Assembly (NCBI GenBank): GCA_001643675.2
Contig: LSRY02000066.1
Coordinates: forward strand, 62,001-126,000
Direction of reading: 5' to 3'
From: Monocercomonoides exilis PA203
Lineage: Eukaryota > Protista > Preaxostyla
Length of the DNA stretch: 64,000 nucleotides
The notes under the pieces are model-generated. The model worked only from the letters and a program-made list of their open reading frames with translations, made no database searches and was not told the origin of the DNA. A program made the position numbers and the translations under genes. Positions 1-54,091 of the stretch are shown in pieces; position 1 is the first letter of the stretch; each line of letters begins with the position of its first letter.

Positions 1-870
1 TTCTCAACTCCGCCCTGCTCTGGGTCAGCCCGCTCTTCAGCGCACTCATCAGATCCAACCGAGCCCTCGTTTGCCTCTCTTCGACTGCTGCATACACAGG
101 CACTTTCCGCAGCTTCCACACAAATTGCGCGTTTTCCTCGCTTTTGATTCGCACATAGCGGCAAGGCACATCCAGTTCATCGCTCAAATCTTCAAAGTCA
201 GAATTAGCTAAATCATTCAGCATGAGGTCCAATTTCCGCTCTCTTGTCAAAATTGGAGTTTGGTTTTCTTTCGCCTCTTGCTGCGCCTCGCTGGCCATTT
301 TGTTCTCTTTCTGGTTGGTCGGTGTGCCTGTCTCAAGCTGTGGTTGTAGTATTCCTTGGATGCTGTTAAACAGATTCTTGTCTTTTTCTTCTTTCTCCAT
401 TTTCCTGCTCTCCCGCTCTTCTTTCTTCTTTTGTATTTCCTGCAGCTTCATCAGCAGAAGTAGTTTTTATTTCTGATCATCAGATTCCAATGAATAAAAC
501 GTGATTTTCGTCTCTTCATCATCCACTTTCCCTTTCTCATCCTGAAACTCATCTTGTATCGCTCTTGTCACTTCTTTGTTCAAATCTTTCATCCCCATCA
601 CACCCAATGTCACCCCTCCTCCTCCTCCAACAGCAGGTGACAGCTGAGTCGTAGGTGTGCCAACAGATCATCTACCCATCTCCATCTCTTGGCTGTATTC
701 AATCAACACCCTCCCTCTGACTCCTCTCCATCCACCGTCCATTCACTTCACTCGCGTAAAGCGTATCGTTCCAAAGGCATCTCTTGCTGAAGTATATTGT
801 TTAGGCTGTGGAGAGAGTGAAGGTGAAGATGGGGGAGAGGGAGTTGTTATTGCTGCTTTTGCGATGAAAA
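1..870 (-). pseudogene. Decayed coding fragment, product unknown; runs off the left edge
   Basis: One minus-strand frame reads as protein (AAITTPSPPSSPSLSPQPKQYTSARDAFGTIRFTRVK*MDGGWRGVRGRVLIEYSQEMEMGR*SV...DQK*KLLLLMKLQEIQKKKEERE) with three in-frame stops. Confidence 0.55.
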
Positions 871-900
871 AGGCTTTATTTTTGGCTCATTATTATTCGT

Positions 901-1770
901 TTAGCCTTTTTTGTTGTTTTGAACAGACTCTTTTGCGTTTGCATTCTTGTCTGATTCTGTTTGATAGTCTTTCTTTTGAAGCATTTCAACACTTTCTTGA
1001 ACTTCGTTGTTTTCGTTTTCTTTCTTTTTCATCGAAGCACTTTGTTTTGTTTCAGTGTCATTCGCATCATCATCATATGCTCCTTCCTTTTCATTCACAT
1101 CGCTTTCTGAGCTGTCAGTTGATTCGTCATCTGATAGAATTCCCCCAACATTCACCACATTCCCATAGCTCATCAGCTTCAGAATATTCTTATCATCTGC
1201 ATTGTCCTCTTCAGACAGCCAGCCGTCCCCTGAGCTTATGTTCCGTCAGTCTTCATCATCGAATTCTTCTCAACTTCTTCGGAACACTGTCAGAATCTTT
1301 CTTAGCTTCTTTCACTCCCTGCCCATCTTCATCTCTCTTGTTTTGCCTGTAGAGCTTATCCAACACTTTATAAAGTTCTTTTCTTCACTTTTCAATCTTT
1401 CACACAATGATTTTGTTCTGTGACATTTCATATTTCAGATACACTTCCTAATAAAAAATGAATATTGATAATTTGATAATAATTTCATATCACACATTAA
1501 TAGAAATACAATGACTGGATTTTATAAATTTTTCAAATTAATAATAAAAACAAACTTTGTCAAAAATGAACAAGAATTAATATAGTCACATTGAATGGTC
1601 TTTCTGTTTGCACCAGCAAAAATAGTCGATGTGTCAAATAGAAAGACTGGTTTCTGAACAAATAAATCAAAATTCTTGTATTTGTGAAAAATAACAACGA
1701 TTTGTTCCAAACCTTTTTGCACTTTTGTCAGTACAAGTCAAACGTTCTCACATATTAAATATATAGAATG
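901..1770 (-). pseudogene. Relic of a repeated intron-containing gene overlapping repeat R copy 1
   Basis: Frame ENV*LVLTKVQKGLEQ...CSFLTKF, a putative intron, then EVYLKYEMSQNKIIV*KIEK*RKELYKVLDKLY...RRIR**RLTEHKL, continuing in frame into ORF 901-1173. Homologous relics at 5460-5690 and 14460-14910 differ partly at synonymous positions. Confidence 0.55.
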
Positions 1771-2140
1771 ACTGTAAAATAATAAGAAAAATCTTCGAAG
1801 ACGGTGCATGGGAAACAATTCATTTCGCACAACACTTCATCCCAAATAAAAAATATGTTAAAAAACAAATTATTACCAACTTTTTCCACTAACAGATTTT
1901 CAAAAAAAGCATCAGACATGTTTATTATCGTTATTTATTCACATTGAGCAAAATAGATCATGGTATTCTTAATGGCGCCATTAATAATAATTTGTATTTT
2001 TTATGATCAAAAATTTCAAAAATTTTTCAAAATTTTTTATTTTTGTTTCATTTAATTTGTGAATATTATTGCTTTGTTAATGCAAACATGTCATCAGAAA
2101 TTAGTTTTGATTTTTTTAATGTTTGATTAAAGGTGAAAAA
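1310..2140 (-). repeat. Repeat R, copy 1 (inverted relative to copies 2 and 3)
   Basis: Reverse complement of 1584-2126 reads identical to 14096-14638, with diverged similarity continuing to about 1310/14910. Contains the palindrome TTAATGGCGCCATTAA. Confidence 0.95.
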
Positions 2141-2243
2141 AATTAATTTTATTCAAAGAAATATTTTATTGGTATTTTTTTTATTAAAAATGTTAATTAA
2201 AAATGAAAAAAAAATTACAAAAAAAAAAAAAAAAAATTAATAT

Positions 2244-4715
2244 TTATTCAATAAGTTGATAAAATGTTAATCCTGACTTCCATCCTTCCAGTGATAAATT
2301 TTTCCAATACTGATTCCATTTATCAAATGCTAGCAGTGAAACAACCTCATCGTCGCATTCAAAGAAAATGCTTTTCTCTTCAATCAAATGCTTTTTATCC
2401 TTCACAACTGCAATGAAATGTCCATCTTTGAATTTTGATGTTGAATGAATCACAGTTCCACAAAGCTGATATTTTGCTGCAATCATATTATTGTCAGAGA
2501 AGAATTTCAGGGAAGTTTTTGCTTTCAAGGGATCAAAAAAGCAGATATCAAAAGGGCCATTTCCTTTTTCAGCAACAAACAGTTGAGTTGGAGGGGGATT
2601 GACTGATGAAGGTGTCAGATTGTTATGAAACACACACAAAACACAGGGAAAAGCATCAAGCCTGATCCATTTCAATTCAATTCTTCCAGTTGAACATTTT
2701 CCACACACCTGTTTCATTTGATCCTCCTCCTCTTTCACGACAGAAAAATAAGAATTTAAACCTTCAACAATATCAGCGTTTGATATTGGCACCTCCAACG
2801 TGATTCCCCTTGGCTTTGAAGTCAATTGATTACAAGACTGACATTTCATAAACTTGTGACTATGAAGTTGAAACTTTTTAATAACACCATCATCCTCCTC
2901 CGACAATAACTCCAGAAATTTTTCATATGTTGAAAGAGAACCTTTGGGTTCCATCAATGGTCCAAAATTATTCTCATACATCTGAATCATTCTCTTCGTT
3001 CCCCAAAAGAATTTCTGAAAATCACACCCACTCAAACATTGCAGAACCATTTGAAGCGATTGTCGATCTGTTAAGTTTCTTTTGCTCGTAAAGCTCCTTC
3101 CCAAATCCAGAGATGCAAAACATTGACATAATGAACTGAATGAACAAGTCTTTCCCAGATTCCTCAATCCTCTTTTCGAAATTTTGTATTTGTAAACACA
3201 AGATCTTGAACCCACATCACCATCCATCACATGCATTGATAAACAGTCGATAAATCTCTCAATTGGTGCAAACATCAGATAAACTGTGTCAGTTCTTGAA
3301 GGGTTTTTTGAATTGGATTCCATATCGTCATCTTCATTTGAAGATATTTTCTTTTTGCTGTGAAAGAGTGTTGCAAACTCTGACTCAAAGGGTGATAAAG
3401 TTGACAAAGTTAAAGAGGGAGAGGAAGGGGAAGAAGAAGAAGAAGAGGAGGAGGAGGAGGAAGAGGAAGAGGAAGAGGAAGAAGAAGAAGAAGAAGGAGA
3501 AGAAGAAGGAGAAGAAGGAGAGGAGTGAGATGGAGGAAAAGGAGAAGGGGAGGATGAAGAAAAGGAGAGGAAGAGGAAGAGGAGGATGAGAGAGAGGAAG
3601 GAGAGGAGTGAGATGGAGGAGAAGGAGAAGGAGAAGGAGAAGGAGAAGGAGAAGGAGAAGAAGATAAAGAGGAAGATGAAGAGGGGGAAGCAGGAAAGGA
3701 AGCAGATGAGAATGCGGATGAAATAGTTGAAGGATGAATATTCGAAAGAGTTAGTGGGAAAGAAGAAGATGGAAATGATGGAGAGGAAGAAGATTTAAAT
3801 GAAGATGGAGAAGCCATATTCAAAGGATGGAAAGAGGATAAATTTGAAGCAGAAGGGAAGGATGAGGAAGAAAATGAAGTCGATGGGAATGAGGAGGAGG
3901 AAGGAGATGAGAATGATGGGAAAGGTGAAGAAGATGATGGAATTGATTTTTCTGATGGAGGAAAAGCAGAAAACATAAAAGGAGATGGAAAGGAGAGAGG
4001 GTTGATTGAGGAAGATGAGGATGATGATAATGTTGAAGTTGATGGTGATAATGAAGATGATTTCGGAGTGTAATTGAGTGAAATGCAATCTTCTGAATCT
4101 TCCATATCCATTTCTATTGTTTCAATTTTTTCATTTTCGGCTCCAAGATATCCAAAATATGATTTTGAAGAATCACGTTGAGAAGAACGTTGTTTCCTTT
4201 TCATTGACGGTGTTCTGTCTGTTGAAATTTCTTTCTTTTGATCGAAAAAGGATGCTCGAAAAGGCGCTGGTTTAATTACAAACCCAAACTCTTGGCTTAG
4301 TGTCTGCTGAGAGAATTCTTTTGTCAGAATCAATAGCATTTCACTTTGTAATTCATAGGAGAGGCTATTGAAAACATGACTCAGCTCTTTTATGGTTCGT
4401 TTCAGTGGATCTTCATATTGCAAAATAAAATAATAATAATAATAATTATTTATAAATAAAAAAAGAATATTTAAAAAAACATTGAATAAAGAAAAATTAC
4501 ATAAATAAAACATTGTTTAAGAAAGACACGCCATTAAATGATTTTAATAAACTTTCGAAAAGTTGCCTTCCTACTTGTGTTTGTTGGAAAAACATAAATG
4601 AAACCATTTCTGCGTGAGAGAGTGACATTTTTTGAAAAAAATTTGTGAGTTGGACCATATCCTTCTGCAGGCTTCTAAATTCCAATCCATTATGAACCCT
4701 TTTAGCTGACAACAT
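2244..4715 (-). CDS. Transposase-derived N-terminal domain, Ser-rich linker and ubiquitin-specific protease (peptidase C19) domain; no transposase core; one apparent frameshift near 3562
   Basis: Exon 1 4715-4532, intron 4531-4411 (GC-AG), exon 2 4410-2244. Cys box GLRNLGKTCSFSSLCQCF, Zn-ribbon pairs KCQSC and CGKC, YQLCGTVIH, His box GHFIAVVK, FFECDD, LTFYQ. The N-terminus aligns with the 9239 gene. Confidence 0.8.
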
Positions 4716-5139
4716 TGTCGATAAACCGATCCAGTCAATGAAATTGCAATATATGGGAATTTTTTTATGAGAAATGGAACTCATAAAACAATAAAAAAAA
4801 ATAATAAAAATCAAATTCAACTAAATATGTTAAATTTCTGACCAATAAAAAATTGAACATAAAAAAATAAACAATGTTTATCTATTTTTGAACAAATATA
4901 AAATAAGATACGATAAAAAAAATATTCAAAGTTTAATGAAAATTTCTAAATTTTTTTCATTGAGGAAAAAATAATTAACAACTCATATTGCTTTCTCATT
5001 ATTTGATAATTAAAAAATAAATTTCAAATACTAAAAAAAAATATTTAAATTTCTAATAAATATTATTTTTATTAATTTTGATATCACATTAAAAAAAAGT
5101 TTTAATAATTAATTAACAACATTCATATGACTTTTTTTA

Positions 5140-5712
5140 CATTAATAAAGCAATAATATTCACAAATTAAATGAAACAAAAATAAAAAATTTTGAAAAAT
5201 TTTTGAAATTTTTGATCATAAAAAATACAAATTATTATTAATGGCGCCATTAAGAATACCATGATCTATTTTGCTCAATGTGAATAAATAACGATAATAA
5301 ACATGTCTGATGCTTTTTTTGAAAATCTGTTAGTGGAAAAAGTTGGTAATAATTTGTTTTTTAACATATTTTTTATTTGGGATGAAGTGTTGTGCGAAAT
5401 GAATTGTTTCCCATGCACCGTCTTCGAAGATTTTTCTTATTATTTTACAGTCATTCTATATATTTAATATGTGAGAACGTCTGACTTGTAATGACAAAGC
5501 TGTATAAAAGGTTTGTAACAAATCGTTGTTATTTTTCATTAATATAAGAATTTTGACCTATTTATTTAGAAACTGGTAATTTTGTTTGGCACATAGACAA
5601 TTTTTGCTGATACAAACAGAAAGACCATTCAATGTGACTATATTAATTCTTGTTCATTTTTGACAAAGTTTGTTTTTATTATCAATATACAAAATACTCA
5701 AAAATCAATTAT
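5140..5712 (+). repeat. Repeat R, copy 2
   Basis: 5147-5480 is identical to 14147-14480 (offset exactly 9000). 5481-5611 is diverged, and about 5613-5681 matches copy 1 instead. Confidence 0.95.
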
Positions 5713-5949
5713 TGTCTTTTTTTGAGTGACTGAAGTGATGACAAGAAGATGAATGAAGCTATAAAACATAATATAAATAAATGCATCATTTCGAGAAAAA
5801 TTAGAAAGGCTTATTGAAATGTTTCGTGTTGTTTGCCTTTTCATTAACGATTATATATTTTTTTTTCCAACTTTTGAGTTTATTCAAATAAAGATGTTCA
5901 TTCCTGTTTTTTTTCAATTAAATAATGTTCAACCTCAATTCCATCATTC

Positions 5950-8000
5950 ATTCAGAACCAACTGATGAGAGTTCTCGACAACAATGTGTATTTCTCTCTT
6001 GTCTCTTCAGCATCCTCCTCCTCTTCTTCTTCCCCTTCTTCTTTATTGACTGATCTGTCAATTTGACCGCTTAACGGAGCCATTTTTGCAAGAACACACG
6101 AAAAAATCAAATACTTTTTTCGCCCAGTTCTTCGCATGTTGAACACATGTAGTTCTGTATTTGTGGTTGAAACAGACAATCAAAAAACAAGTGGATGCTT
6201 GGAGAAATTTACTGATGCTGGAGACATCAACAGACCATCGCAGTCAGTTCGCATTGCTCCCGCCTGTTTCTTTAATTTTCGGATAAAGAAGAAGAGCAAG
6301 ATACCAGCGAAATGTGAAAAATTGCATCAACAACAGCACAACTGCATTGCATGTGGTGGCTGGCCTGTGGATCCTTCCTTCTGCAACTGTTGTGGATGTG
6401 CACCGCCACAACACGGAGAAGGCGATTCTATGGAAAGAACTAGCTTTGATCCAGTTGAACCACGCGTTTGCCCACGAGCTCGCTCCAGCCGACGAGACAT
6501 TCAACCGCTACGATGGGCTGCTCTACACAGAGGCTGGCATGCGCTTACTGCCGGATCTGTTGCATTTTCCTTTCAATTTAGGTACCAATCCGCTGCTATA
6601 TAAAGACACAGAGGTGTTTGTGTGTGTGTGCAAAGCAACATGAAAATATCCTATTGATTGGCAAACACACAATTTTACAAATTTTAATGTGAGAGTGGAG
6701 TATTGAGTGGAGGAAGGAAATATGAGGAAGGGGATGATGCATCAGATGGGAGGGATGGGTCTGGGTGGAAATGGATGTGGAGGAGCAAGTGGAGGAGAAG
6801 GAGGAGGATAAAATGATAACAATGGAGGAGATGGAAGTTGTGGAAATCAAGGAGAAAACAAATGAGAATGAATATGTCCCATTTCAATAGATCCACGCGA
6901 GGGACATCTTGAAGCCGGAGAAGAACGTGTGAATAGATTTTCATGTGACAGCCACAGCAAGTGTATTCATCAAGCTTCGTTCATCTGAAAGCATCTGGGA
7001 GGAGGGAAGCACGCGGTGAAGAAGATTGCATGCCAGATGCTAATTCAAATCAAAGCACGTGTTGGGTTTGAGAGCGAGCGAGAAGAAGAAGAAACGGAAA
7101 TGCATTTACTGGAATAAATAACCCATCGGCGAGGTGGATGCACCAATGCAGTCGATCGTGATGCGGAACAAAGGTGGGACGAGCATCGACAACAGACTCG
7201 ATCTGACTGATGAAGAGCGGCTGAGTTTTTCCACATCTGAATATTCACTGTTTGAATAACTTTTCACAACAGGGATTGTGCAAGCGCATGAAATGTGGAA
7301 AACAAATTGTTTCTTCCGTCCGCTGATGCAAAGAGGTTATTTGGAAAGGATTCCGATCAATCTGGGAAGCAGGTACAGCTCGATGAGTGTGATGAACGCG
7401 AATGTTGGAATAGGAGGAGCAGTTTGAGGAGATGGGAATGTGAATGGAACGAATCATTCACCATCATCGAACAATGGAATAGTGATGGGAATTGGTGGAG
7501 CACAAGGAGGAGCACAAGGAGCAGCCGGAGGAGGAAGTGATGGAACAGAAGGCATCACACACGCGGAAACAGTTCTGCAAGCGCTGCTGGCGGGCGACGG
7601 TTTCATCGCGAAGGAAGGAGCAGAGCCACTTGTGGATGAGAAAAAGACAACTATTCCAGCTCCTCTTTCTCCTTTGCCTAGCAAGCTGTGCTTATTGTCA
7701 CATGAGCAAATTGGCTTTGGGAGTGTGGCAGATGGGAGCATCGAGCGGAGGCTGGTGTGTCTGGTGTGTCTGCGTGCGAGGAGCATCCTGCATTGCAGAA
7801 GAGGGCATGTGAGAAAGGAGAGAAGAGAGAAATTATATTAGATACAGAAGAGAGTCGTCCACTGATCAAGTCGGATGCTTCGATAATTTGGCCGATTGGA
7901 GGAAAGAGGACAAAAGGAGAGAAATGCGTATGTGTGTTGTGCAGTCGCATGTTCTTAAAGGCTGTTCAAGTTGAAGAAATTTCATTTCAATGAATTATCA
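5950..8000. other. Patchwork of short, GC-richer exon-like fragments in both orientations
   Basis: Protein-like segments end at GT donor-like sites, e.g. 6314-6612 (...LHFPFNLGTNPLLYKDTE|gtgttt) and 7440-7763 (...SKLCLLSHEQIGFGSVADGSIERRLVCL|gtgtgt). No complete gene can be built. Confidence 0.45.
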
Positions 8001-8675
8001 TTATCGTTATCTTCACATTTTCGATCTCAAATTGTTATTATCTTTTTCAAATGTGAATGAAGTCGGTGGTGAAATTACAAAAAAAGCGAAGCAGAAATGG
8101 ATGATTATTGGCATTAGGAGAAAAAAGTGATCAAAAAGAGGATATATGTGTTTTGATTGTGATCGATGAATAATTATGTGAAAAAGAAAATAAAAGAAGA
8201 TTTGTGAAATGAAACAAAGAAAAAATTAAAATTGTTTATTTATAGTTATTGTTTCATCTCGGATATTTCAAAAAGAAAATAAATAAATAATTGTTGATGT
8301 TCAAACAATAATCAAACTTATTATTTTTATTTGTTCATCAGTTAAACAAATAATCTCTATTCAACACATCTGTGCAGTATTTAAAAATTTATATATCTCT
8401 CTTTTTTTTATTATTATTTGCTCATTTCAGAATTTTTTATTTAGAAATAATTTTTTTTATTTCTATTTGTTATCAAAACTAATTTATTTTAATGGTTCGT
8501 TTCATTTTTTTGATTTATTTTGCATGAAAAAAAATATTTAATAATGAAAACGAACTTTAACAAAAAAATGAGTTAATCAATTCGAATTGAAGAAAAATAT
8601 ATATATATATTCGAAGGTTTATTAATTTTTTATTTCATTTTTTTTTAAAAAATTAAAAAAATTCCAATTCACATA

Positions 8676-9108
8676 GTTCAAAAACATCTGCATCATTTTA
8701 TTTTTCCAAATAAAAATAATCACAAAAATGACGACAAGCTCAAATGAGAAGTGTGATCAGTCACTAACAGATATTTGAAAAAATGAGTATGATTAATCAT
8801 TTCGATGCAGATGATCAGTATTTGACAAAAACAAGAAGGAAAAATTTTGCAAGAGGGAATGTTATTGGAAAAAAAAGAAACACAATGATAGATCAAAATT
8901 TCGATCATTCTTTTTCAAATAACACTCCCTCTTGCAAAATTTTTCCTTCTTGTTTTTGTCAAATACTGATCATCTGCATCGAAATGATTAATCATACTCA
9001 TTTTTTCAAATATCTGTTAGTGACTGATCAAACTTCTCATTTGAGCTTGTCGTCATTTTTGTGATTATTTTTATTTGGAAAAATAAAATGATGCAGATGT
9101 TTTTGAAC
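8676..9108. repeat. 433-bp near-perfect palindrome (foldback) upstream of the transposase gene
   Basis: GTTCAAAAACATCTGCATC... pairs with ...GATGCAGATGTTTTTGAAC. Arms are about 200 bp with very few mismatches, the loop is about 30 bp, and there is no clear TSD. Confidence 0.95.
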
Positions 9109-9238
9109 AATATAAAATTATTAGTCATTTTCGAAAAAATATTTATTTCTAAAAAAACAAAAAATAAAGAAAAATCCCGAGTTGTCAATTTTTTATTAAT
9201 TGATAATAATTCCATAATAAATTGTAATAATCACTAAA

Positions 9239-12200
9239 ATGTCATTTTCAAAACAGGAGTCAACTCTAAATTCACGATGCAACGTTCTATGGAAAGAAAT
9301 ACAACGCATCGGTGGAGATGACGTTGATTCATTGCTCGTCTATTTGTTTTACAACTACAGAAAATCATCTTCAGTAATTAATGATTTACTGAAGTCCTTG
9401 AATGGTTTGGACTTCAAAATTTTTTGATTGTTAATAACTTTAATTTATCTATTATTATATTCATTTATTATTAATATTTATTTTTTTGTTATTTAAAAAA
9501 CTTAGAATATTACGAAATACTTCTGAAAGATCTCTCTGTTGTGTACAAGTACGCACAATTACACACGCAAACGATGATCCTACAAGCACTGACGCGCAAC
9601 GCATCATTATCTGAGCTTCTGGACTATGGATTTGACATTACTGAAGGAAAGTATAATTATGCAAAACAAACTCTTACAAAAAACCAAGGATTTTTAATAC
9701 CAGCACAATTGCCTCACCCACCATCATGTAAAAGTGGTTTGTATTAAATATTATAATGATTTCTTTTTTTACTGTTTTTTTATTTTTTCAATTATTTTTT
9801 TTTTTTAAGGTCTTAATGAACAAGATTGGGAAAAGGGCAACAATTGGATGTTGGCCCATTCCACAGAAGCATCAACGTCATTGCAATCAGCCAAGAAAAA
9901 ACCAAAAAAGGTTCCAGATTACGAGCAGTTCATTGAGGAATCTGCATGGGATGATATCATAATTACAGAAAAAAATAATACAAACAAAAAACTATCTTCA
10001 TCATCGAAAAAGACAAATCAAAGTTACAACAACGCCAAGCTCATTCCATCTGTGAAACCTTCTTCTACAAATAATACACCTTCTCAAACAGTAAACAATC
10101 CAATCAGCACTCCACTTCGTGCTGAAAGAAAGACAATAAGAATTAAACAAAAAAATTCATTTCATCATCGTCATTCTTCTCCATCACTGATTCCTATTCA
10201 CAAACTTTACAAAGAAAAAACTTCATCATCATCTTCATCATCATCATCTTCTTCTTCTTCTTCATCTTCTTCTTCTTCATCATCATCCTCATCATTTTCA
10301 TCATCATCATCATCCTCATCCTCATCATCATCATCCTCATCATCATCATCCTCATCATCCTCATCATCATCATCCTCATCATCATCATCAATAAGAAAGA
10401 AAAAGAAAGAAATAGATAATACTCCTCCAACAGACAAAGTTTCATCATCCTTTAGCAACGAAAATATGTGGATTAGTGGTCAATTGATTGAATATGCCAC
10501 TTCTCCCACTCTTATTCCTCCACTGGCATTTCAAAATCTTCTCTCAACATTTCCAAAAAATAATGACATTTCAATTACTCCATCACAATCACCTCAATCA
10601 AATCAAAACGAATTAACAAACAATAATAGATCATTGAAAAACATTTCAAATAACAACACAATGAATCTTCATCCTTCTAATCCGTTAACATCTCCATTTC
10701 CTTCATCACATTCACAAAACTTAACAAACATAACAAACACTAGTTTTAAAGGATTAATCAATTTAGGCAACACATGTTATCTTGCCTCTCTTCTTCAGTG
10801 TTTTTCTTCAATCACTTCACAAAAACCATCAATCATTTCGAAAACACGCTCAAAACAAACATTATCATTTCAAATGATGAGTATTTGCAATCAAATCCTC
10901 AAAGATGGAAAAAAAGTACATTCATGGATCCCATCAATTGTTAGCAAATGGGAAAATTTTTGCAGATACGGAAGCAAGCAGCAGCAGAATGTGTCAGAGG
11001 CATTCGATAATCTTCATAGACTTTTCGAAAAAGATGGATTGATAAAGAAAGATTGCTTCTGTCCTATTATAATTTCTCATTTCAAATGTTTTAAATGTCA
11101 AAAACTCACATCACACATCGACAACATCAACAATAGCATAATTATCAATTCTTCATCAACTCACAATGGTTTGTCTTCTTTGTTTTCAACTGAAATACAA
11201 GATGGGAAAAATTGTGTTTATTGTGAAGAGTGCAAAGAAAAATGCTGCACTGCAAGGTGGGAAGAAATGATATCATTTCCTGAGGTACTTGCCCTCTCCC
11301 ATGAATGTACTGATCCTGCAAGTTCTCCACCTTCTCGAACACATCTTATCGAGACTGATATGTCGAACAAACGTTCATTTTGCAAAGGATATGCAAATGA
11401 AAAAGATTCAACATTTCACAACAACAATAAAGAAACAACATTCTATCATTTCATTGGTCAAGTTCTTCACAAACAGTTTGATAACAGTAATGGTCATTAC
11501 ATTGCTGTTGTGGAAAGAAAGAAAGGAATTAGAAAGATGTGGATCACCTGTAACGATGATGATATAAAACAATTTGATAGTGACAATTGGACTAAGACTT
11601 GGAAAGAACTTTACGCACAGGGTTACACTCCTTCACTTTCATTCTACGTAAAAGAAAACTCACTATCTACGCATCCAACAATTCAATTTGGTGGTTCCTC
11701 TATTTCTTCCTCCTCTTCTCAATCTTTAAATATCAACAACACAAACACAGACACAACTCCATCATCATCGTTTATCACACCACCACATCATTCTTCTTCC
11801 ATTCCACAACTTTCTTCATCAATAACAACTAACTATGGATTGGAAGCACTAAAAGAAAGAAGAAAGAAAACGGGCATCTTTTCTCCCAATGAAAAGAGAT
11901 TAATCTTCAAGCCCAAGACTAAATTATGGAAAGAGTTTTCCGAAGAAACAAATATTAAAGTATCATTATCACACTTCTACAAACTCACCACAAACTTTTC
12001 CAAAGCAAAAAGGCGCACAGATCTCTGTGGAATGTGCGAGAAACTCAACTATCTGGAAAACAAACTGAAGTCATCTCAAAACAAAAATGGACTTTCTTCT
12101 GCCGAGTTTCATACACTCAAACTTCTTCGTCAGCATCGACTTGTTGCAGAAATGCAACGAAAACATTATCAATCAACTGTTGACAATCTGAAAGAGGGAG

Positions 12201-13135
12201 AAGCAGTCTTCGTCTTCGACTTTAAAGAAAAATGGAAACTCCCGATCAGAAAGAACCAACTTCAACAAGAATTCTTTAATTATCAACAGGTTTCTCAATT
12301 CACAATCATCTCTCTTCAAAAAATTAATAATCAACTAATTAAAAGAACATTCAACTTCTTCTCCGACTGCCTCTCAAATGATCACAGATTTGTTATTGAG
12401 TGTCTGGAATCTGTGATCAAAAGACACTTCTTCTCAGACACTCACACTTTTAAGTTCTTCTGCGATTCGGGCCCACACAACCGAAATCGCTTCCTTCTTC
12501 ACTTCATCCTCTCCAAACAATCAAAACTTCTTAAAAAGAAAAATACACAACTCAATTACTTCGCTGAGCACCACGGAAAGAATATATGTGATAGTGAATT
12601 TGGTGCATTAGTTAATTCAATCGACAACAATCTATCAACTGAACACATCACTACACTTCATGACTTAATCAACTTCTTCGAAAACAATATGAATGTTTCA
12701 ACATCTGTTTCATCATCATCACAATTGAATATTTTTGAATCATCCTCATCAAACAACTCCCCATCGTCATCATCTATCAAGGAGTGTGTGCATGAGAGGT
12801 ACTTTGAAGAGTATGTACCATCTCAGCAAATTTCATGGCCATCACTGTCAGTCCCTCACATGAAGGACTATTTATACTTTGAGCGCAAGGGCTCATTTGT
12901 CTGCGCATCTGCTGTTGGATATCTTCCTCAACGCTCTCTGGTTGCCCTCGAATCTTCGACAATGAAAGAAAAGGTTCAACGTTCAAGAAAGTCATTTCAC
13001 TCTGATATCACATCATCTAACTCTTCTCTTCTTTCTCAATCTTCTCAAGATCTTCTTTCAAGAAGATTTGATCTTCTTCTTAACTCTTCATCTTTAAATG
13101 AATCTCAAAATTGTATTAATAGTGTCCCTTTTTAA
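9239..13135 (+). CDS. Sola-like (Sola2/Sola3-type) DDD transposase with an internal USP (peptidase C19) deubiquitinase domain, about 1240 aa, 3 exons
   Basis: Exons 9239-9404, 9506-9736 and 9810-13135 join in frame via GT-AG introns. USP motifs at about 10745-11655: GLINLGNTCYLASLLQCF, QQQNVSEAF, KCFKC/YCEEC, GHYIAVV, WITCNDD, LSFYVK. Transposase motifs at about 11890-12950: KLWKEF...KVSLSHFYKL...RTDLCGMC, VFDFKEKW, FFSDCLSND, FFCDSGPHNRN, NYFAEHHGKNICDSEFG. Confidence 0.85.
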
Positions 13136-13142
13136 GAAACTA

Positions 13143-13274
13143 GTTGTTGTGTATGCTTAGCTAGCACTCTATCGGAAGGGTGCTGGACATGACTGTTCGT
13201 ATTAGATATTGCAGCCTTCGGGCTGCAATATCCGGACCTGGATACGACGAACAGCCTCCCAGGTACACAATAGT
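13143..13274 (+). ncRNA. Candidate structured RNA element directly after the transposase stop codon
   Basis: GC-rich island with a closing stem 13143-53/13264-74 (G-U pairs), hairpin 13161-86, stem 13193-200/13247-54, a perfect 12-bp hairpin with cUUCGg loop 13205-32, and a crossing pair ACCTGG (13236-41)/CCAGGT (13259-64). Confidence 0.55.
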
Positions 13275-14079
13275 TAGAATCCGATTGTTTTCTTACTGTT
13301 TCTGTCCCTATAATGTCCCTATTTGCACTTGGTAATAGTCCCGAAATTTATTTATGTATATCTTAATAGAGATTCATTTTTTGATGGGTGTTATGAAGAG
13401 TTTCAATGATTTTTGGATTAGATTTCAGGAAAGGGGAATAGCTGAGAGTGTGAAGTGATGTTTCATCACTGTGTCTGCCTTTTTTCTCTGTTGAATTTGA
13501 TCTTTTTGAGTTAGGACAAGAGAAATATCAGAAAGGGTGGAGTAGGTAGAAAACAAAGGATAAACAGTCAAGTTTGTTTTTACACCTAAAGTATTTGTAT
13601 TCTTTTGTGTTTTGAATTGACTATGATACCATGTATTTGTTGATATAGTAATGCTTTTTTTTGAATCTTTTATTGTTCATATGAATTGATATTGAATTGA
13701 CTGTCGGGAAATGTTTTAATGATGATATAGTAAAAATATATTCCTTTGAGAGTGATGCAACAAAAAAAGAAACTTATATGTTGCTTTCAATATTTAAGCT
13801 GATTAATACAATGAAGTGCTGTTGTTATTTGTGTGTTATTTTGTTTTTTGATTGTTATCGAATTAACAATGAATTTATTTTTATGTTTTTCTCATCACTG
13901 AATATTCATCAACCGTTGTAGTTACTCAACAATGAAGATATTGATATCAAAACATTTATATATTGAATAGAACAATAATTATAAACATGTTCATTCAAAA
14001 ACAAAACATTTTTAAGTGTTTAATTTTTCAAAGATATTTTTCTCATTTGAAATGAAAATTCAATGAAAAATAAAAAAAC

Positions 14080-14910
14080 ATATTTTCACCATTATTCAAA
14101 CATTAAAAAAATCAAAACTAATTTCTGATGACATGTTTGCATTAACAAAGCAATAATATTCACAAATTAAATGAAACAAAAATAAAAAATTTTGAAAAAT
14201 TTTTGAAATTTTTGATCATAAAAAATACAAATTATTATTAATGGCGCCATTAAGAATACCATGATCTATTTTGCTCAATGTGAATAAATAACGATAATAA
14301 ACATGTCTGATGCTTTTTTTGAAAATCTGTTAGTGGAAAAAGTTGGTAATAATTTGTTTTTTAACATATTTTTTATTTGGGATGAAGTGTTGTGCGAAAT
14401 GAATTGTTTCCCATGCACCGTCTTCGAAGATTTTTCTTATTATTTTACAGTCATTCTATATATTTAATATGTGAGAACGTTTGACTTGTACTGACAAAAG
14501 TGCAAAAAGGTTTGGAACAAATCGTTGTTATTTTTCACAAATACAAGAATTTTGATTTATTTGTTCAGAAACCAGTCTTTCTATTTGACACATCGACTAT
14601 TTTTGCTGGTGCAAACAGAAAGACCATTCAATGTGACTTTGATAATTATTATTCATTTTTAACAAAGTTTGTTTTTATTATCAATTTGCAAAATACTAAA
14701 AAATCAATTTTTTTGCTGCTTTGAATGCATTCTGTAAATTATTATCAATATATCTGATTATTTTTTTATCAGGAAGTGAATCGGAAATATGAAATGTTTC
14801 AAAACAAAAACATTGTGTGAAAGATTGAAAAGTCAAGAAAAGAACTATATAAAGTACTGGATAAGTTCCGCAGACAGAGCAAGAAAGATGAAGAATAGCA
14901 GGGAGTGAAG
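14080..14910 (+). repeat. Repeat R, copy 3
   Basis: 543 bp identical, inverted, to copy 1. ORF-track entries 1522-1722(-) and 14500-14724(+) share their first 47 aa. Confidence 0.95.
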
Positions 14911-17900
14911 AATGGTGAGGGAGATAATGATAAAGCTTAACAGGAAACTGGAAGAGATGAAAACTAAATTGACGGAAATGAAGATGAGCAAGATGATTCT
15001 TGACCTGAAGAGGAGAGAGGAATTGTGAAGAAAGTTCTATTAGAATCGAAAGCAGTAAGCGCAAGAGTGTATAGGAGAAGGGTGGAATGAAGAAGGGTAG
15101 ACGAGAAGAGAATTATTTTATGGAATGAGAACAAAGACATGAAGACAAGCAAGGAGAAGTCTCAATTCAATGACTGCGGGTTGAAAGACAGTGAAAGAAA
15201 GCGGAAACAATTATCTAAGAACTACATGGAATTCTGTTGGACGACTTTAAGGAAGAGCATGAAAAGGAATGGGCATAGGCGTATGGAGACATCTTTGTTC
15301 AACCAGTATTTAAAAATCATTTCGCTTTCAACTGAGAAACAAAGGAAAATGAAGCTGAAATTGATTGAAGCAGCGCAGAGCAGGAAAAGGAAGAGGAGAG
15401 GGAAGATTAGGGTGAACATGGAAAAGAAGCTGGACAAGAGGAGGGAGGAGCATTATTAAGCTCATAAGGTTATGAAGGAGGAAGAGAAAGTGAAAAAAGA
15501 ATTGAACATAAGAATTCTTTTCAAAATTGGAAAAGATGGAACATCAAAAAGAAACGTTGATTGAATGGTCCATTTGGAGATATAAGATAAAAGTTGAACA
15601 TCTTTTGTTATTTATTCTTCAAAGAATAACAATTGCCTTGAAAAGTCGTTTCAGAGGAAGAATTAAAATGTTCAATTGTCAAAAAGCAGGAAGCAGAAGC
15701 AGAAGGGGAGAATGCAACGAGGTCAAACATAAGAGGAAATGAGCAATTATGTATCGAAGACAAGGAGGAAAAAGAGAGATGGAAAAGCGAGCTGAACTGC
15801 AGCATGTCTGAAGCATCAAAATCAGCTTCAAGAAAAAAAAAAGATATTCTCGTGACATTTCTTCAGTAATTTCATCGTCATTATCTTCTTCTTCATCGAG
15901 CAACTTGAAGTTTTTCCGGGATCCAAAGGATGAATCCAAAATGACAGCGAAAGGGAAGAAATGCAGCAAAGATGACATGGTTCCATTCCAAGCAGACGAA
16001 GATTATTTCTTCTTGTTAAAAAACACAACAACAAACAAAGCATTAAGCCCATCTATTTCTCAATCACAGGCATCGTCTTCATCTTCCCCTCAGATTTCTT
16101 CATTGATTTCTCCACAAAGTGCCAGCAAACACACAAAGGTTCCACGAAGCAGCCTTCTTGTGATGATGGAAGGGATAAAGAGGAGGAAAGAGGAGAAGAA
16201 GAACACAGATTTTCTCTTGCTGTTTTTATCGCTGGTACCTGAAATGATACTGACTATGATGCCAGTTGGCGATATTTCGCTTGTAGATGGCAAGTGGTTT
16301 GAGGAGGAAGTGAAAGATGTGGATGTGGTGAGAGGAGTGGAAGAGGAGGAGAACGAAAGGAAGAAGGAGAGAAAGGAGTACTTGTTGAAATCGAAGAAGA
16401 AAACAAACGAAAAACTGAGTTGAATGAAAGAAAGGAAGCTGAGAGAAGAAAAAGAAAGAGAATCATTTAGAATAAACAGATCATCTTTTCACAAACAAAA
16501 TGTCATTACGCAACGTTAGTTGGAATAAATCAGACTCTTCAGTCAACGCTTCAATCAACTGGATCAGCATCCTTCTCTTTTTCTCCTTCCTCCTCTTCCT
16601 TATCATCATCATATCCTTCTTCTCTATCCTGACATATTCCATCTGATTACAATCATATTGATTATGCTTCACATCCTTCAACAGCATCACTTTCACCTCC
16701 TTTTTCAAAGTTATGTATATCTCCATCTTCCTCAAATACCTCAACTTTCACAAGTCAAATATTGTATCCCGTTTCTTCTTCGTCATTGTGCTTTCCTGAG
16801 CTAAAATTGTCGACTATTCCAAGCTTCATCGAACGAACTGAGTTAGAGAAAGCGATACAGACGAAGATGAGAAGATGCAGAAGAATGAGACAGAGAAGCT
16901 GGGAGAGGAGCTGCTGGAAGAAGAGAAGGAAAACTCGGAGAAAGATCGGGAAAAGCTCGAAGACGAGCAAAAGAAGGCGCTGGAGCAGGTTGAGAAGAAG
17001 AAAGAGGCGTTTGTTTCGTATCTGAAAAAGATGAAGATTGAAAGCGAATAAAACTTTAAAAGTGGAGCAAAGCAGAAGAAGGTGTGGATGAAGGAGCATT
17101 TCGAATAGCCTATTGTTGTTTGTGTAATGAAGATGCTGTTAATTTGAGATGATCTATCTTTTGATCGGTAGGCAGTTTATTTTGGAAGCTGTGCAGATGT
17201 GTTTCCTAATAAAAGCTCATTTTTGACTGTGGAAGAAGGATAAGGAAACAATTCAGAAAACTTGTCATTTTCAAAAGAACAACAAAAGAAGAAGAGGAAA
17301 AAAGAAAAGAAAAATGATGAGGAAGTTAGAAACAAAAAAAGGATACGCTGATGATGAAGAAACTTTCGAGTTGATTTTCCTGAGAGAAAAGAAGAAGAAA
17401 GGAGAGAATTGAAGAGAGAAAAAAGATGAACTCTGTTTCAAGTTTCAATGGCGAGATCTGTGATGATAAGATACAAGACGGAGTTTTTTATAATTGTCGA
17501 ACTGGAATATGATTTAAAATATTTTGAGGGAAGAGAGATTGCTGTTGGAGAAAAAGTTGCATAAATTGGGAAGAGCACAAAGAGCGGGTTTAAAGAGGAG
17601 TAGATTTTCTCTTCGAAAACAATGGAGCTTGGAGTTGAGGTTCAGATGCATCTCTGTTGGAGAAAAGAGTCAGGAGATAAAAGCAAGAGATCCGAAAAGG
17701 ATGGAGAAGAGGGAAGACCGTGCAAAAGAGTTTGAATAATGTGAAAAGATGTGACGGAAATTGAGAAATGAACATCAGCGAGCTGGCAGAGGGAAAGCCA
17801 ACAAAAACAAGATTTTTCTAAACAGATCCAATTCGAAAGTTGGAAAGGCAACGCTGGCGGTTGATGTGCAGGACGGCTGTGGAGGTGGGTCCCAGGTGGA

Positions 17901-18433
17901 CAAGCGCGGAGCCGAACTGGCAGATAGAGAAGCATATATTTTGTCAGTAGAATATCAGCTTGGAACAGCAGAAAATGATAAAGTGGAGGCGTGAGGTTGA
18001 AGTTGATGCACAACATTGCAACTCTTCACTCACACCGCTGACAAGCGCAAGCCGGATATCGCCAGACTTATGAGAGCATAATGTTTGTGAAGTTGGTTGA
18101 TTTCAATTCGAATTCTGCTCTGGGTTTGTCGAATACAGCAAATGAGAGAAGCTTAAACACCTCAAAGGGATGAAAGCAAGAGGAATGCGAGTTTGGCAAA
18201 AGTGGATGGAGAATCGATGAGGATAAATGGCTGTGACTAGGATACTGAGGCGAAAGTGCAATGATCCAGATACACACTCCCTTTTTGCTGCCTCAGCAGT
18301 CACATATGAAAGGTGTGATTGGGAAGTTCGTATTGAAAAGGATCATCGAGCTAAAAGTGGATCAGCTGAAAGAGAAACAATGAAAGTGGGACTCAATGAA
18401 CAAGGAATGCGATTCCTCAGAGGTGGATTATAG
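14910..18433. other. Patchwork of decayed coding fragments in both orientations
   Basis: Short protein-like frames with stops and strand switches, e.g. + strand about 16800-17050 AKIVDYSKLHRTN*VRESDTDEDEKMQK...SYLKKMKIESE* and minus strand about 17530-18110. Confidence 0.4.
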
Positions 18434-19064
18434 TTAAGAAAAAAAGCCAGCTGTACATCAAAATATTTTGAAGTATCTGAAACAGAAATATTTGTATTTT
18501 TATTTATTTATTCATTATTATCTTTGTTATTTTTTTCGACAACTTTGATCAATTTATAAAAAGAACTTCTTTAAAATATTATTTGCTTTTATAGAAAAAT
18601 AAACAGCAAATATTTGAATATCTGATGAATATCTAGTTTAACTATTATATTTTTCATTTGTGTTTTTGAAAATTGTTTGTTTTCAACTAAAGTTCTAAGA
18701 TCTTCAAAATAAATATTAAAAGATCTTTGTAATAACTCATAAAACTAATTTTCATATTTAAAAATTATTGATTTCATATTGTTATTATCGTTATCATGTT
18801 TTATTAACGAAAAAGCAAGTATTTTGTTCTGTTTATTTAAGTTTCGATATTTTTGAATAATTTTTTATGTTTTTTTCAAAATATGAAATAAAAACAATTG
18901 GAAACAAATTAAAACCAACAAATAAATTATATTAACAACATATTAATGTATTTTTTCGAATTATTTTACAAAAATAATTTCGATTCAACCCAACCCTTAA
19001 TGAAAAAAATTTATGATCAAACGTCGGAATTTTTTATGATATCAAAAAAAATCACCCATATATC

Positions 19065-19282
19065 GAAATCTCGGTAAAATAGGATTTAGAGTTTCTCCGA
19101 GATTTTAAAAAAATTTTTTCTGAGCACAAATGAAGCTATTTTGAAAGATTTGTATGTTACGTGAGTTTGTATCAATGTGATGTATTTTGAGGAAAATTTA
19201 CTGAATTTTTCCTCTTGCAGTTACTGTGAAATCGGTCATGTCCGGTATTTTGTGCGATGTCCGGTATTTTATGCAATATCTG
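19065..19282. mobile_element. MITE family A, right half
   Basis: Matches the central hairpin and right arm of 49735-50096; ends ...ATCTG followed by TA. Confidence 0.75.
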
Positions 19283-19469
19283 TACGACTGTTAACAATTT
19301 TCTGTGTGGATAATTATTACAATATTATTTACTTTTTTATACGGTTTTCTTGAATTTTTTTTATACAGAAACTTTTTTATTGAACTCATGAAATTAATGA
19401 AATTATTCCTCAAAATATGGGATCGATCAAAATATTTGATCAAAATATTAATTTTGCAATTTTTTCTGA

Positions 19470-20489
19470 ATGCATATTGAGGATCGCAAATTCAAAATTA
19501 GCATCTTTAACGAATTATTCCATAACGCAAATGATACATGGGAATGGTTCAGAAATGAAGTGTTAAATAAAAGATACAAAGAATGCAGAAATTGCCATAA
19601 GGAAATGGTTCTCTATGAACGAAATCCTAATTCCAGACAATGGAGGTGCTTCAGATGCAACAAAACAATAAGCCTGCCATCAAATCTATCAAGAAAAAAT
19701 CAAAAAATAGGAATTGGAAAATTAATGCATATTTTCGTTATCAAATGGATGAATATTTCAATTACGCATACTTCTTCACTTCTTTGTTTGCATAGAAACA
19801 CAGTTGGTTTTTACTATTCACTTGCAACAGCAGCAATGGCACAGAGCGCATCATCATCGTTTCAGCCAATTGGAGGTGAAAATTCAGTTGTCGAAATTGA
19901 CGAAGCAGTTTTGAACAGAAGAAAATATCATAAAGTCAGATGGAAGAAGCAGATCTGGGTATTTGGAGCTGTAGAAAGAACTGAGTATGAAAATCATGGA
20001 AGCTTTTTTATCATCAGAGTACATAATAGAAAAAAAGACACATTGCTTCCAATCATTCATGCAAATATCTTTCCAGGAACGATGATTCACAGTGACGAAT
20101 AGAGAGCGTTCTCATCTCTCAATGATCTCGGTTGTGGCCACAAAACAATATGCCATAAATATCATTTCAAAGACCCAGAAAGCAAAATATGAACCAACAT
20201 GATTGAGGGACTGTGGAGTCAATTTCGAAGAGATTAGCCTCGCACGGGGCTGAAGGAGAAATTCATTGATGATTATATTTCTTCTTTTGTGTTTCAAAAA
20301 AGAAAACAATCAACATTTGTTGAAACTGTGAGAGAAATTTGCCAATATAAAGTGAATGAATATATTGAAGAAGAAAAGGAAGACCACAAAGAAGATGTGC
20401 CAGTTTTAGCTGAACAAAACGAAGAAATTTCTGAGGATTCGATGGAAGTTTGTGATGGAGCGGAGCATTCTGAATATGAACCCGAATAA
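19470..20489 (+). pseudogene. Merlin / IS1595 (ISXO2-like) transposase pseudogene
   Basis: Zn finger CRNC...WRCFRC, IGGENSVVEIDEAVL, RRKYH, WVFGAVER, TLLPII...IFPGTMIHSDE*RAF (W to TAG), HKTICHKYHFKDP, *TNMIEGLWSQFRR, then a frameshifted tail. Confidence 0.9.
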
Positions 20490-23527: not shown

Positions 23528-23820
23528 CAGATTGTGCAAAAAATACAGGGCATCGCAAAAAATACCGGATAAGATAGATTTCACAATATCCACAAAGAAA
23601 TAATTCTTTAATTTCCCTCAAAATAAATCTCATTTCTATTAATTCATTTCATTTTCACTATTTTCAAAACAGCCTCATTTGTGTTTTGAAAAAATTATTT
23701 TGAAATCATGGAGTAATTGGATTTTGAGTAAAATTGACAGAATTATTTCTCTTGTGGATGTTATGAAATCGATCTAATCCGGTATTTATTGTGATGCTTG
23801 ATATTTTTTCCACAATTAGA
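23528..23820. mobile_element. MITE family A, internally deleted copy
   Basis: Left end CAGATTGTGCAAAAAATACAGGGCATCGCAAAAAATACCGGA is the inverse of 19223-19282; partial right arm at 23720-23820. Confidence 0.7.
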
Positions 23821-26118: not shown

Positions 26119-26660
26119 TTTTGAAATGTTGATGAGTTATGTTCATTAATTTTGTTCAATTGTTCGAGAAAAACAAATTATTCTTTCTCATTTTTTCTTT
26201 TTTTCCTTTTCTTCTTTCTTTCCTTTTCTTTTCTTTTTATCTTTCATTTCTAATTTTTTCACGTTCATCATAAACGATTTTGATGAAATGACACACATAT
26301 TCCTTCATTTCTCCTTTGGAACAAAGTTTTCATTTTCTCCTTTTAAATCTTTTTAATTTGAAATATGTGTAATTCTATTATGATTCTTTTTATGACATTT
26401 TGGGGGAAAATACGGACTTTCAAGCTTTTTATGCACAAAGCATGAAAAAATTGTTTCCCTTATAACAATATTAAACTTTATCAGATTTCAAAATACATTT
26501 GATTTTAAAATCCGTAAACTGGCACAGTTGAAATCAAACCATTAAGGATTATTGCATTTCATGAATGTCAAAAAATGAACCCATTTTTGTTGTGTTTTTT
26601 GATATAAAATGGTCAATGAAAAATGCATAATTATTTAATGCAAATGCCTGAAGTGATATA

Positions 26661-26902
26661 TGGGTAATTCTTTTTGAAAAGTCACAAATGTTTAATTTTC
26701 AAAAAAATCGATATTTTCATATTTTGCCCAAATTTCTGTTTCAGCTCACAAATCTCCTCAAAAATGTCTGAAATAGTATTATCCAGAAATTAATTCCATA
26801 TTAGAGAAGTTTGGTGTATGCAAACAAAAATTTGAGCAAAAAAGGAAATATTCAGTTAATTTTAAAAATAAACATTTGCGACTTTTCAAAAAGAATTACC
26901 CA
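26661..26902. mobile_element. MITE family C, TIRs of about 45 bp, TA flanks
   Basis: TA|TGGGTAATTCTTTTTGAAAAGTCACAAATGTTTA ... TAAACATTTGCGACTTTTCAAAAAGAATTACCCA|TA. Confidence 0.85.
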
Positions 26903-27063
26903 TATTTTGCCCCATTTTTTTTGATATTCAATAGATATTTTTGTTCCGAAATTTTTGTGTGAAAGTATTAAATTCCAAAAAAAAAATCACAGATATATTT
27001 CATAATATTGAAGTTTTTTTTATTTTCAATTTTTGTTGCAACACGGATGATGAAATCTAACTA

Positions 27064-47800: not shown

Positions 47801-47977
47801 TCGTCTGCACTTGATGCTATTTACACTGTTTTGAAAGATTGTGAAATTGTGTCTATTGATTCGTTTATGGAATTTACAAAATCGAAGAGCTTTGATCATG
47901 ATCTATTTTATTCATTTAAAGTTAAATTAATGACGGCATATAGAAAAGCACATGAGGATGATGACGACTTTGATTAG
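41842..47977 (+). CDS. eIF4G: Eukaryotic translation initiation factor 4G-like protein (MIF4G domain)
   Basis: MIF4G motifs LSVLNRVAPANF, LYDKAVYESKYVPLYAELC, FRRLILMRCEEQF, KGNMVFVAEL, EDMEAL, VKFPLMDIID; upstream 4E-binding-like YSYMFML. Exons 41842-41887, 42031-42045 and 42123-47977. Confidence 0.85.
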
Positions 47978-49299: not shown

Positions 49300-50106
49300 T
49301 GGGTGATAATTTTTTAATCCTTATTTTCTCTCTCAAAAATATCTGTTTGAGAATTCACATGGATCAAAACATATTGCTTTATATTTTTTGTTCCACGAAA
49401 TATTTACTTTTCTTTTTCTCTATTTTTTTAATTATCTGTAATTTTTTTTTCATTATTTTAGATGACTTTTTATGTTATGATAGCAGAAAAAGTTTGGATC
49501 AAATCATTGAATTTTTCATTACTGAAAAAAAAAAACTCCCACGTTGAATACAAACAAATAATCGCTGAAAAGTTGTGACTCATTTCTGAGAAAATATTTT
49601 TCATGCATATAATCTCAAACGTTTTAATTTTTAATAATTTTCCTCCTTTTTTCTCAAGCCTGAATTATTCCTTTTTAAAGCAGAAAAACCTTTACGGAAT
49701 CAACACTCCGAAAAAGAAATGATTTCAAAAATTACAGTTTGAACAAAAAATACGGGACAAGATCGATATCTCAATAACCGCAAGAAGAAAAATTCTGTCA
49801 ATTTTCCTCAAAACACATCTCATTAATACAAACTCGCGTGATACAAAAGACTTTCATCACTTCCTCGTTTATGCTCGTGAAAAAATTTAATAAAAATCTC
49901 GGAGAAACTCAAAATCCTATTTCTCCGAGATTTTCAAAAACAATTTTCTCTGTACACAAAAGAAGTGATTTTGAAAGATTAGAAAATCAATTGAGTTTGC
50001 ATTGATGAGATATATTTTGAGGAAAATTATCAGAATTTTTTTTCTTGCGGTTTTTGAGATATCGATCTTGTCCGGTTTTTTTTTTTTCATTAACTGTATC
50101 ACCCAT
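49300..50106 (-). mobile_element. Longer family B-like element whose right TIR is interrupted by the family A MITE
   Basis: TGGGTGATAATTTTTTAATC at 49300; the right end GATTTCAAAAAT(TA)TCACCCA is restored when 49735-50098 is removed. Confidence 0.6.
49735..50096. mobile_element. MITE family A, full-length palindromic Tc1/mariner-type element
   Basis: TA|CAGTT...AACTG|TA, imperfect arms of about 170 bp, central hairpin AAATCTCGGAGAAA/TTTCTCCGAGATTT. Confidence 0.9.
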
Positions 50107-53805: not shown

Positions 53806-54091
53806 ATTTAATAAAAATATTTGAATTAAATTATAATTAAATATAAACAATATTTATCTGTTGTTTCTTTATGCTATTATTCATTTCACAATTTTTTTTC
53901 TTTTTTGATTAGCAATTTGAATTTTTCTTTTTGAAAGATTTTTTTGAAGAAAATTTAGAGTATTTTCTTCAAATTTATTCTCCTAATCTGTCTTCACAAA
54001 ATACAATTCAAAACTTCATCTTCATCTTCATCGCTGTTTTTTAAAGTCCCAAACAATACAATAATTTGTACTTGTTTCTGCATTTGAAATA

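Follow-up and report, generated by a model that had tools for sequence, protein, structure and literature searches.

The window analysed here, a stretch of 64,000 nucleotides of Monocercomonoides exilis PA203, contains two related genes on opposite strands (Table 1). Gene A encodes a transposase with a ubiquitin-specific protease (USP) in its interior, while gene B has the N-terminal domain and the USP of this family and lacks the DDE-type core. We consider gene B to be a strongly diverged sister of gene A which likely serves their common transposon family as an accessory deubiquitinase gene, a reading to which we give a probability of about one half. The USP occurs at this locus both in fused and in stand-alone form, and the slot which it occupies in gene A holds an OTU-like domain in one relative. 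As the initial annotation of this DNA had claimed, gene B is a stand-alone USP beside a transposase-USP gene: it has no DDE-type core region and its stop lies at the USP boundary.

Table 1. Features of the gene A/gene B locus (positions counted from the first letter of the window)
Feature	Positions	Strand	Description
Gene A	9239..13135	+	1240 amino acids, three exons: 9239-9404, 9506-9736, 9810-13135
Gene B	4715-2244	-	N-terminal domain, linker and USP
Gene B, exon 1	4532..4715	-	61 codons and one base; first half of the transposase-type N-terminal domain
Gene B, predicted intron	4411..4531	-	GC-AG, 121 nt, 14% GC, phase 1, AT-rich
Gene B, exon 2 start	4200..4410	-	remainder of the long helix and three-helix HTH-like unit
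Gene B, linker	3324..4199	-	Ser/Pro-rich, low complexity
Gene B, frameshift zone	3538..3597	-	reading switches near the T4 run 3563-3560
Gene B, USP (peptidase C19)	2244..3185	-	Cys 3146, His 2420, Asp 2354/2351, four zinc-ribbon Cys
Arm A1	1495..2153		inverted relative to A2 and A3; outer end fades
Arm A2	5071..5738		upstream of gene B
Arm A3	14069..14727		downstream of gene A; 74-88% similarity to the A1 side continues to about 14910

The N-terminal domain and the intron of gene B

The spliced N-termini of genes A and B align significantly, as the initial annotation had supposed, with a score of 62 which none of 5000 shuffles reached (z 6.8). Taken by exon, exon 2 alone was matched by 5 of 5000 shuffles and exon 1 alone by 497 of 5000, which is not significant. 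A profile of the domain was seeded with gene A and its relative P0002, then rebuilt from 45 segments (one Streblomastix protein among them) excluding gene A, gene B and all M. exilis-named proteins. With this profile gene B scored 28.6 bits, while the highest of 2000 shuffled sequences reached 13.4. The score was obtained with the GC-AG form of the intron, the best of the six splice forms compared; the other five, four of them with GT donors, were rejected at 13.4-21.6 bits. From the profile score and the comparison of splice forms, we therefore concluded that the front of gene B is the N-terminal domain of gene A's transposase family, and that the GC donor is the best model of the splice as predicted from homology.

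This agrees with the earlier proposal of a GC-AG intron at 4531-4411, whose ends are indeed GC and AG. Exon 1 ends, as proposed, with LLKSFN and one base, in phase 1, and exon 2 begins DPLKRTIKELSHVF, again as proposed. Intron 1 of gene A (9405-9505, with a GT donor) lies at the same aligned codon and in the same phase, and the public annotation of P0002 reads through the matching junction. Upstream of the start codon retained here (ATG at 4715) there is a further in-frame ATG at 4784. With both domains and the intron position in common, the paralogy of gene B with the transposase-USP gene, and the descent of its N-terminus from the transposase, hold as they had been put forward.

The reading frame of gene B

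The frame of exon 2 meets a stop at 3410, that is, before the USP, which is read in a different frame (3794-2244); within the Ser/Pro-rich part, the switch occurs near a run of four T. Because of this frameshift, gene B as assembled does not encode the fusion protein. An open reading frame ending right after the USP had been described: the stop of the USP frame (2246-2244) does fall four residues after the last conserved USP motif (FY), but the gene is not one open reading frame. An extra intron was tried as a repair of the frame and rejected, with no fitting pair at 40-400 nt among 12 donor-like and 12 acceptor-like sites. In this copy, either the assembly is wrong at this point or the linker has recently undergone a mutation by slippage.

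The same frameshift favours another explanation, according to which gene B is a decaying relic, either an accessory gene or a truncated transposase, which no longer works. The frameshift would then be real, the GC donor would be a decayed GT, and the element between the arms would be only non-autonomous. Yet this is one break in about 780 codons, it lies in a slippage-prone tract, and homopolymer frameshifts are an error documented for M. exilis assemblies (PMC8767320). Weighed with the evidence given in the following sections, such decay seems to us rather unlikely. Should the frameshift be real and gene B silent, the interest of the locus would be confined to the architecture of gene A.

The USP domain of gene B

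Gene B matches the Pfam model UCH with 42.6 bits (cut-off 23.9), and gene A passes this model as well. The Cys box (GLRNLGKTC, with the oxyanion Asn), the His box (DGHFIAVV) and the Asp-Asp motif (ECDDEVV) hold the residues which have catalytic and oxyanion roles in solved USPs; the Cys, His and Asp are all kept, as had been claimed. The zinc ribbon (CQSC and CGKC) aligns with that of the A family and of P0006, all four Cys being present. A Gln box, which is of the QQD or QHD type and serves to bind the ubiquitin tail, is absent from gene B: the aligned residues are QQQNV in the A family and QQDA in P0006, but PKGSLS in gene B. This loss is in keeping with decay of the gene; the intact catalytic and zinc residues argue against it.

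The USPs of genes A and B align with a score of 279 (0 of 1000 shuffles) at 30-32% identity. In searches at one database size, the two best A-family USPs match the gene B domain with 88-91 bits and the best solved USP with 25 bits; an unrelated USP gives 12 bits. Among the USPs compared, it appears closest to the A family, as judged by pairwise score and not by phylogeny. A structure model of this domain, built on an alignment of 2 sequences, has a pLDDT of 33, too low for any reading of the fold.

The fold of the N-terminal domain

The model of the N-terminus of P0002 (pLDDT 84.6) consists of a long helix and then three short helices. Its comparison with the TIR-binding domains of SETMAR (Z 4.2, rmsd 2.9, 53 residues aligned) and of Mos1 (Z 3.7, rmsd 3.0, 51 aligned) gave scores which are tied with those of unrelated helical proteins; none of 48,161 chains reached Z>=5, and Foldseek returned no match at E<=0.001. 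The HTH-like unit of gene B keeps its hydrophobic core. At positions 106-107 of the profile, in the predicted recognition helix, K or R occupies 64% and 60% of the 45 rows and gene B has Phe-Phe, while the helix which follows is missing in gene B. The loss of these basic residues is another point for decay. A family motif, G-K/R, is kept by gene B and lost from gene A. Gene B had been called "DNA-targeted" in the initial annotation. The term keeps some force, DNA targeting by the N-terminus being weakly suggested, but the fold match does not exceed Z 4.2 and is tied with unrelated proteins, and two basic positions of the helix are Phe-Phe.

In a tree of N-terminal domains (30 rows; 18 of the 45 segments, shorter than 140 amino acids, were left out), gene B was not grouped with gene A and stood on a long branch (2.84). 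A clade uniting gene B with gene A and P0002 is compatible with the AU test (p 0.139).

Gene A and its transposase family

In gene A, the N-terminal domain is followed by a Ser-rich linker, the USP (amino acids 445-746) and the DDE-type core (amino acids 828-1087). The closest relatives are M. exilis-named proteins, 90-93% identical over the transposase part. Nine M. exilis-named relatives of gene A were found, most of them annotated as fragments, and such fragmentation of many A-family copies would also suit decay of gene B. Together with the stop-bearing copies of gene B, they show the family to be dispersed and in part decayed. A search of 1.84 billion representatives gave the core 681 relatives at E<=0.001, with 150 among the matches listed. 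It resembles clusters of DUF7869 (Atlas 0.95), and its D, D, HGK and D residues do not vary across 25 aligned rows, likenesses which place gene A beside the DDE-type transposases of DUF7869 (PF25273); gene B differs from these in having no core. With Pfam at E<=0.001, 7 of 63 relatives matched a model, 6 of them DUF7869 and one of these above the cut-off, and gene A itself had no Pfam DUF7869 match. DUF7869-type transposases of this kind are presumably those which go under the label "Sola-like". At the time of PMC5751038 there were no Pfam models of Sola, and the parts of PMC5751038, PMC4455052, PMC10045372 and bioRxiv 2021.09.26.461848 which we drew on offered no means of assigning gene A to a Sola subgroup.

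Among the 156 proteins compared, a USP was found only in M. exilis-named members of the family and in one unrelated USP. In the relatives without it, the core begins almost directly after the segment which follows the HTH-like unit. Since the linkers and the USP of gene A separate segments which adjoin in these relatives, we concluded that the USP is an internal insert. The relative P0017 has an OTU-like domain (residues 285-445) inserted at the same site. This insert was detected by the Atlas only, through matches (0.92-0.93) to clusters with OTU in 19-44% of their members, and by neither the Pfam nor the PDB sequence searches. Between gene A and P0001-P0005, identity is 53-61% in the USP and 93-96% in the core, a contrast which reflects either fast evolution or an exchange of modules; P0009 is an exception, the tail of its USP being close to that of gene A.

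A more distant M. exilis-named transposase, P0008 (43% identical to the core of gene A), begins with a USP-like tail, which suggests a third USP-transposase subfamily. This bears on a further explanation of gene B, by which there would be a separate, B-type subfamily of USP-transposases and a loss of the core at this locus would have left only the front two-thirds of one member. Gene B would then be a deletion derivative and not a selected gene. Besides the existence of a third subfamily, the G-K/R motif which is absent from gene A and the unread 3' flank of one diverged copy would favour such a deletion. However, the stop of gene B lies only four residues after the last conserved USP motif, the tail of P0008 has no match to gene B, and no long B-type protein occurred among 5351 candidates of 549-2000 amino acids, a search in which P0001-P0003 were missed. 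We find a deletion of this kind quite improbable. The earlier argument that the two proteins are too strongly diverged for gene B to be a recent deletion copy is valid for a deletion from gene A, but not for one from an unseen B-type transposase.

Copies of gene B and signs of selection

Gene B is present in contigs of four runs, presumably of DNA, from one sample. Of 5 runs listed none was of RNA, which says nothing about expression of the gene. Exon 1 and the intron had no contigs in 4 of 4 runs, which proves nothing on their absence, and contig depth gives no copy number for the gene. A comparison of the window with the main contig version, which covers gene B on either side of 3406-3691, shows 8 changes among the 983 bases of one contig. 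Of the 7 changes listed for the USP frame, 4 are synonymous (P 0.035); in the linker and the N-terminal part, this is the case for 1 of 5 codons.

The shallower contigs differ at 8-9% of sites. The reading frame of these diverged copies is interrupted by stops at codons 2348, 2339, 2471 and 4162, and directly ahead of the catalytic His a Gly is replaced by Glu. The 40 variants entered (those listed being 40 of 78 and 40 of 54, with a few in the linker which are perhaps unrelated low-complexity matches) comprise 18 synonymous, 18 missense and 4 nonsense changes. The synonymous excess has a P of 7e-4 with the counted site share of 0.21, and of 0.03 with a share of 0.30 which allows for transition bias. 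In one diverged copy, the contigs run 1.3-1.8 kb beyond 2301.

We take this as signs, read from sequence variants, of purifying selection on gene B, the synonymous excess being obtained on small and partial lists and being expected for transposon cargo as well. From this excess together with the stop-bearing copies, we therefore suppose that gene B was once selected and that it also left dead copies, as transposon cargo does. For decay of the gene, the excess found in the USP of the main version is unfavourable evidence, while the stops and the Gly-to-Glu change of the other copies are favourable.

Word-limited searches found no B-type protein, and no orthologue of gene B in related species, among 1171 candidates of 205-653 amino acids or among the 5351 longer ones, of which the latter search recovered P0004 and P0005. 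This is weak evidence for decay. Nine proteins predicted in the window have no exact match in the protein collection, which is uninformative, their starts and introns being guesses.

The inverted arms

Gene B lies between the inverted arms A1 and A2, and A3 repeats the arm behind gene A, so that both genes are enclosed by A1 and A3. A1 shares a stretch of about 500 nt with A3 and one of about 330 nt with A2, both at 100% identity; the arms are most alike on their inner side and diverge outward, with no sharp outer end. No target-site duplication was found: A1 and A2 have no direct repeat of at least 7 nt, and the one 8-mer direct repeat of A1 and A3 is inside their shared flank. The arms may be the terminal repeats of a 13-kb unit with two genes and an extra inner arm, or of a 4-kb unit with gene B only.

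The arms bear on the idea of domestication, by which the host would have obtained a chromatin deubiquitinase from transposon parts and would now keep gene B for the cell's own use. Its deep divergence from gene A and the signs of purifying selection would agree with this; moreover, the arm ends fade and may not be true termini, and the main version may be single-copy, depth giving no copy number. Far from being a single copy without flanking inverted repeats, however, gene B has arms on both sides, which are common to the transposase gene, and diverged copies with stops. The window copy has a frameshift, and no orthologue was found, though the collection has transposase relatives named from Streblomastix and Blattamonas. 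Because the inverted arms recur behind gene A and copies carry stops, we prefer transposon cargo to domestication, to which we give little credence. The initial annotation had left the choice between "accessory" and "domesticated" open; the first term is the likelier one.

At 5293, 5395 and 5419 and at the matching sites of A1 and A3, all three arms of the window share CG-site alleles which are absent from the main listed contigs. This sharing is due either to concerted evolution or to a collapse during assembly polishing. An attribution of the 2:1 split in arm depth to A1/A3 versus A2 was dropped; neither listed haplotype matches the arms of the window. The flanks beyond A1 (1290-1495) and A3 (14727-14930) are 74-88% alike and resemble decayed coding sequence. 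A fourth piece of the arm, short and diverged (72%), is found at 57452-57552. Scans of metagenomes yielded 0 of 53 and 8 of 280 stretches. No USP and no match to the arms was present in any of these 8, and the 5 loci among them which were checked for inverted repeats had no long arms.

A possible history and role of gene B

The origin of gene B and, if it is expressed and active, its recruitment and substrate might be as follows. A DUF7869-like transposase would have received a USP in the loop which joins its HTH-like domain to its core, and the resulting transposase-USP gene would have been duplicated long ago. One duplicate, ending at the USP boundary, would have been kept by selection as cargo of the element. 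By means of the N-terminal domain, the USP could be drawn to the element, either to its arms or to transposase bound there. The USP would then take ubiquitin off chromatin or off the transposase, which would lead to less silencing or to less degradation. In this, gene B might act by analogy with the Ulp1-bearing VANC/KIU genes which serve the plant VANDAL elements. We count against the cargo reading the frameshift, the absence of the Gln box, the Phe-Phe pair, the absence of sharp ends and of a target-site duplication, the placement in the tree, the run-on beyond the 3' end in a diverged copy, and the 1 of 5 synonymous codons of the linker part.

A more elaborate form of the same reading is conceivable, and we hold it to be unlikely. 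The insertion site would be an exchangeable deubiquitinase slot, with a USP in Monocercomonoides and an OTU-like domain in another lineage, and the USP would change much faster than the core (53-61% against 93-96% identity). Gene B would be an active second subunit, joining the transposase or the arms via its N-terminal domain, with a USP of different specificity. Together the two genes would then form a two-deubiquitinase counter-defence in a 13-kb element with three arms, engaged in an arms race with ubiquitin-based silencing by the host. Since both domains are small and assayable, the locus allows a direct test of transposase protection versus chromatin opening.

Comparison with known systems

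Trichomonas vaginalis, a metamonad, has a protein similar to gene A in that a USP is fused with a DNA transposase. In this protein, XP_001314237.1, Peptidase C19 is combined with transposase_11 (pfam01609) (PMC2836005). The transposase is thus a different one, the part of that source which we drew on mentions no stand-alone sister, and in gene A the USP is inside the transposase.

Ubiquitin-family proteases on transposons, including USP and stand-alone Ulp1 genes, are already published. Capture of ubiquitin or SUMO proteases by DNA transposons has recurred often, and these sources do no more than suggest what the proteases do there (PMC2836005, PMC11417382). Ulp1 and OTU occur on Ginger1, Mutator and Helitron proteins, for which a role in repair has been proposed (PMC2836005), and UCH occurs in HLE2 Helitrons (PMC11417382). 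Gene A resembles Ginger1, the MULEs with OTU or Ulp1 and the HLE2 Helitrons in this capture. The protease additions of Ginger1 are C-terminal, whereas the family of gene A has an internal insert, an OTU-like domain at the same site in P0017 and a core-less paralog; Helitrons have a rolling-circle enzyme, whereas gene A has a DDE-type core.

Closest to gene B as a working analogue is KIU (Kaonashi), a separate Ulp1-bearing VANC gene of VANDAL elements, which are non-TIR MULEs of Arabidopsis, with anti-silencing activity (PMC13317346). Both are separate genes, KIU inside a DNA transposon and gene B perhaps likewise, which combine a targeting domain, in gene B a predicted one, with a ubiquitin-like protease beside a transposase gene. 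In KIU, Ulp1, a SUMO protease, is carried on a VANC domain and anti-silencing has been shown, whereas gene B has a predicted USP on the transposase's own N-terminal domain. Gene B, with a USP in place of an Ulp1 protease and a transposase-derived N-terminus, would not be a homologue of KIU by these two features.

In the literature covered, which lies outside most subscription journals, Repbase Reports and supplements, we found neither a published report of a USP in this DUF7869-like family nor one of a sister gene without the core. The gene A/gene B family would give a name to one of the many unclassified repeats of Monocercomonoides, such repeats making up about 35% of the M. exilis assembly (PMC8767320).

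Other features of the window

Just past the stop of gene A, the segment 13140-13277 (+) has 48% GC and a predicted three-way junction with a UUCG-capped hairpin. The fold of 13136-13300 has an energy of -57.5 kcal/mol (z -4.0, 0 of 200 shuffles). Rfam gave 12 matches over 1-20000, all under the gathering score and none of them at 13140-13277.

Long near-perfect palindromes with short spacers, similar to MITEs or foldback elements, occur at 8668-9116, 54089-55102, 49733-50098, 26658-26905 and 23531-23816; the first of these ends about 120 nt before the start of gene A. A fragment of an ISXO2/Merlin-type transposase (PF12762, E 2e-7) lies at 19066-20102, and a repeat beside it is related to the palindromes at 23531 and 49733. 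An open frame of 1966 codons at 42077-47977 (+) contains a MIF4G domain (E 4e-18), and a coding tandem repeat with a 90-nt unit in at least 10 copies extends over 55883-57017.
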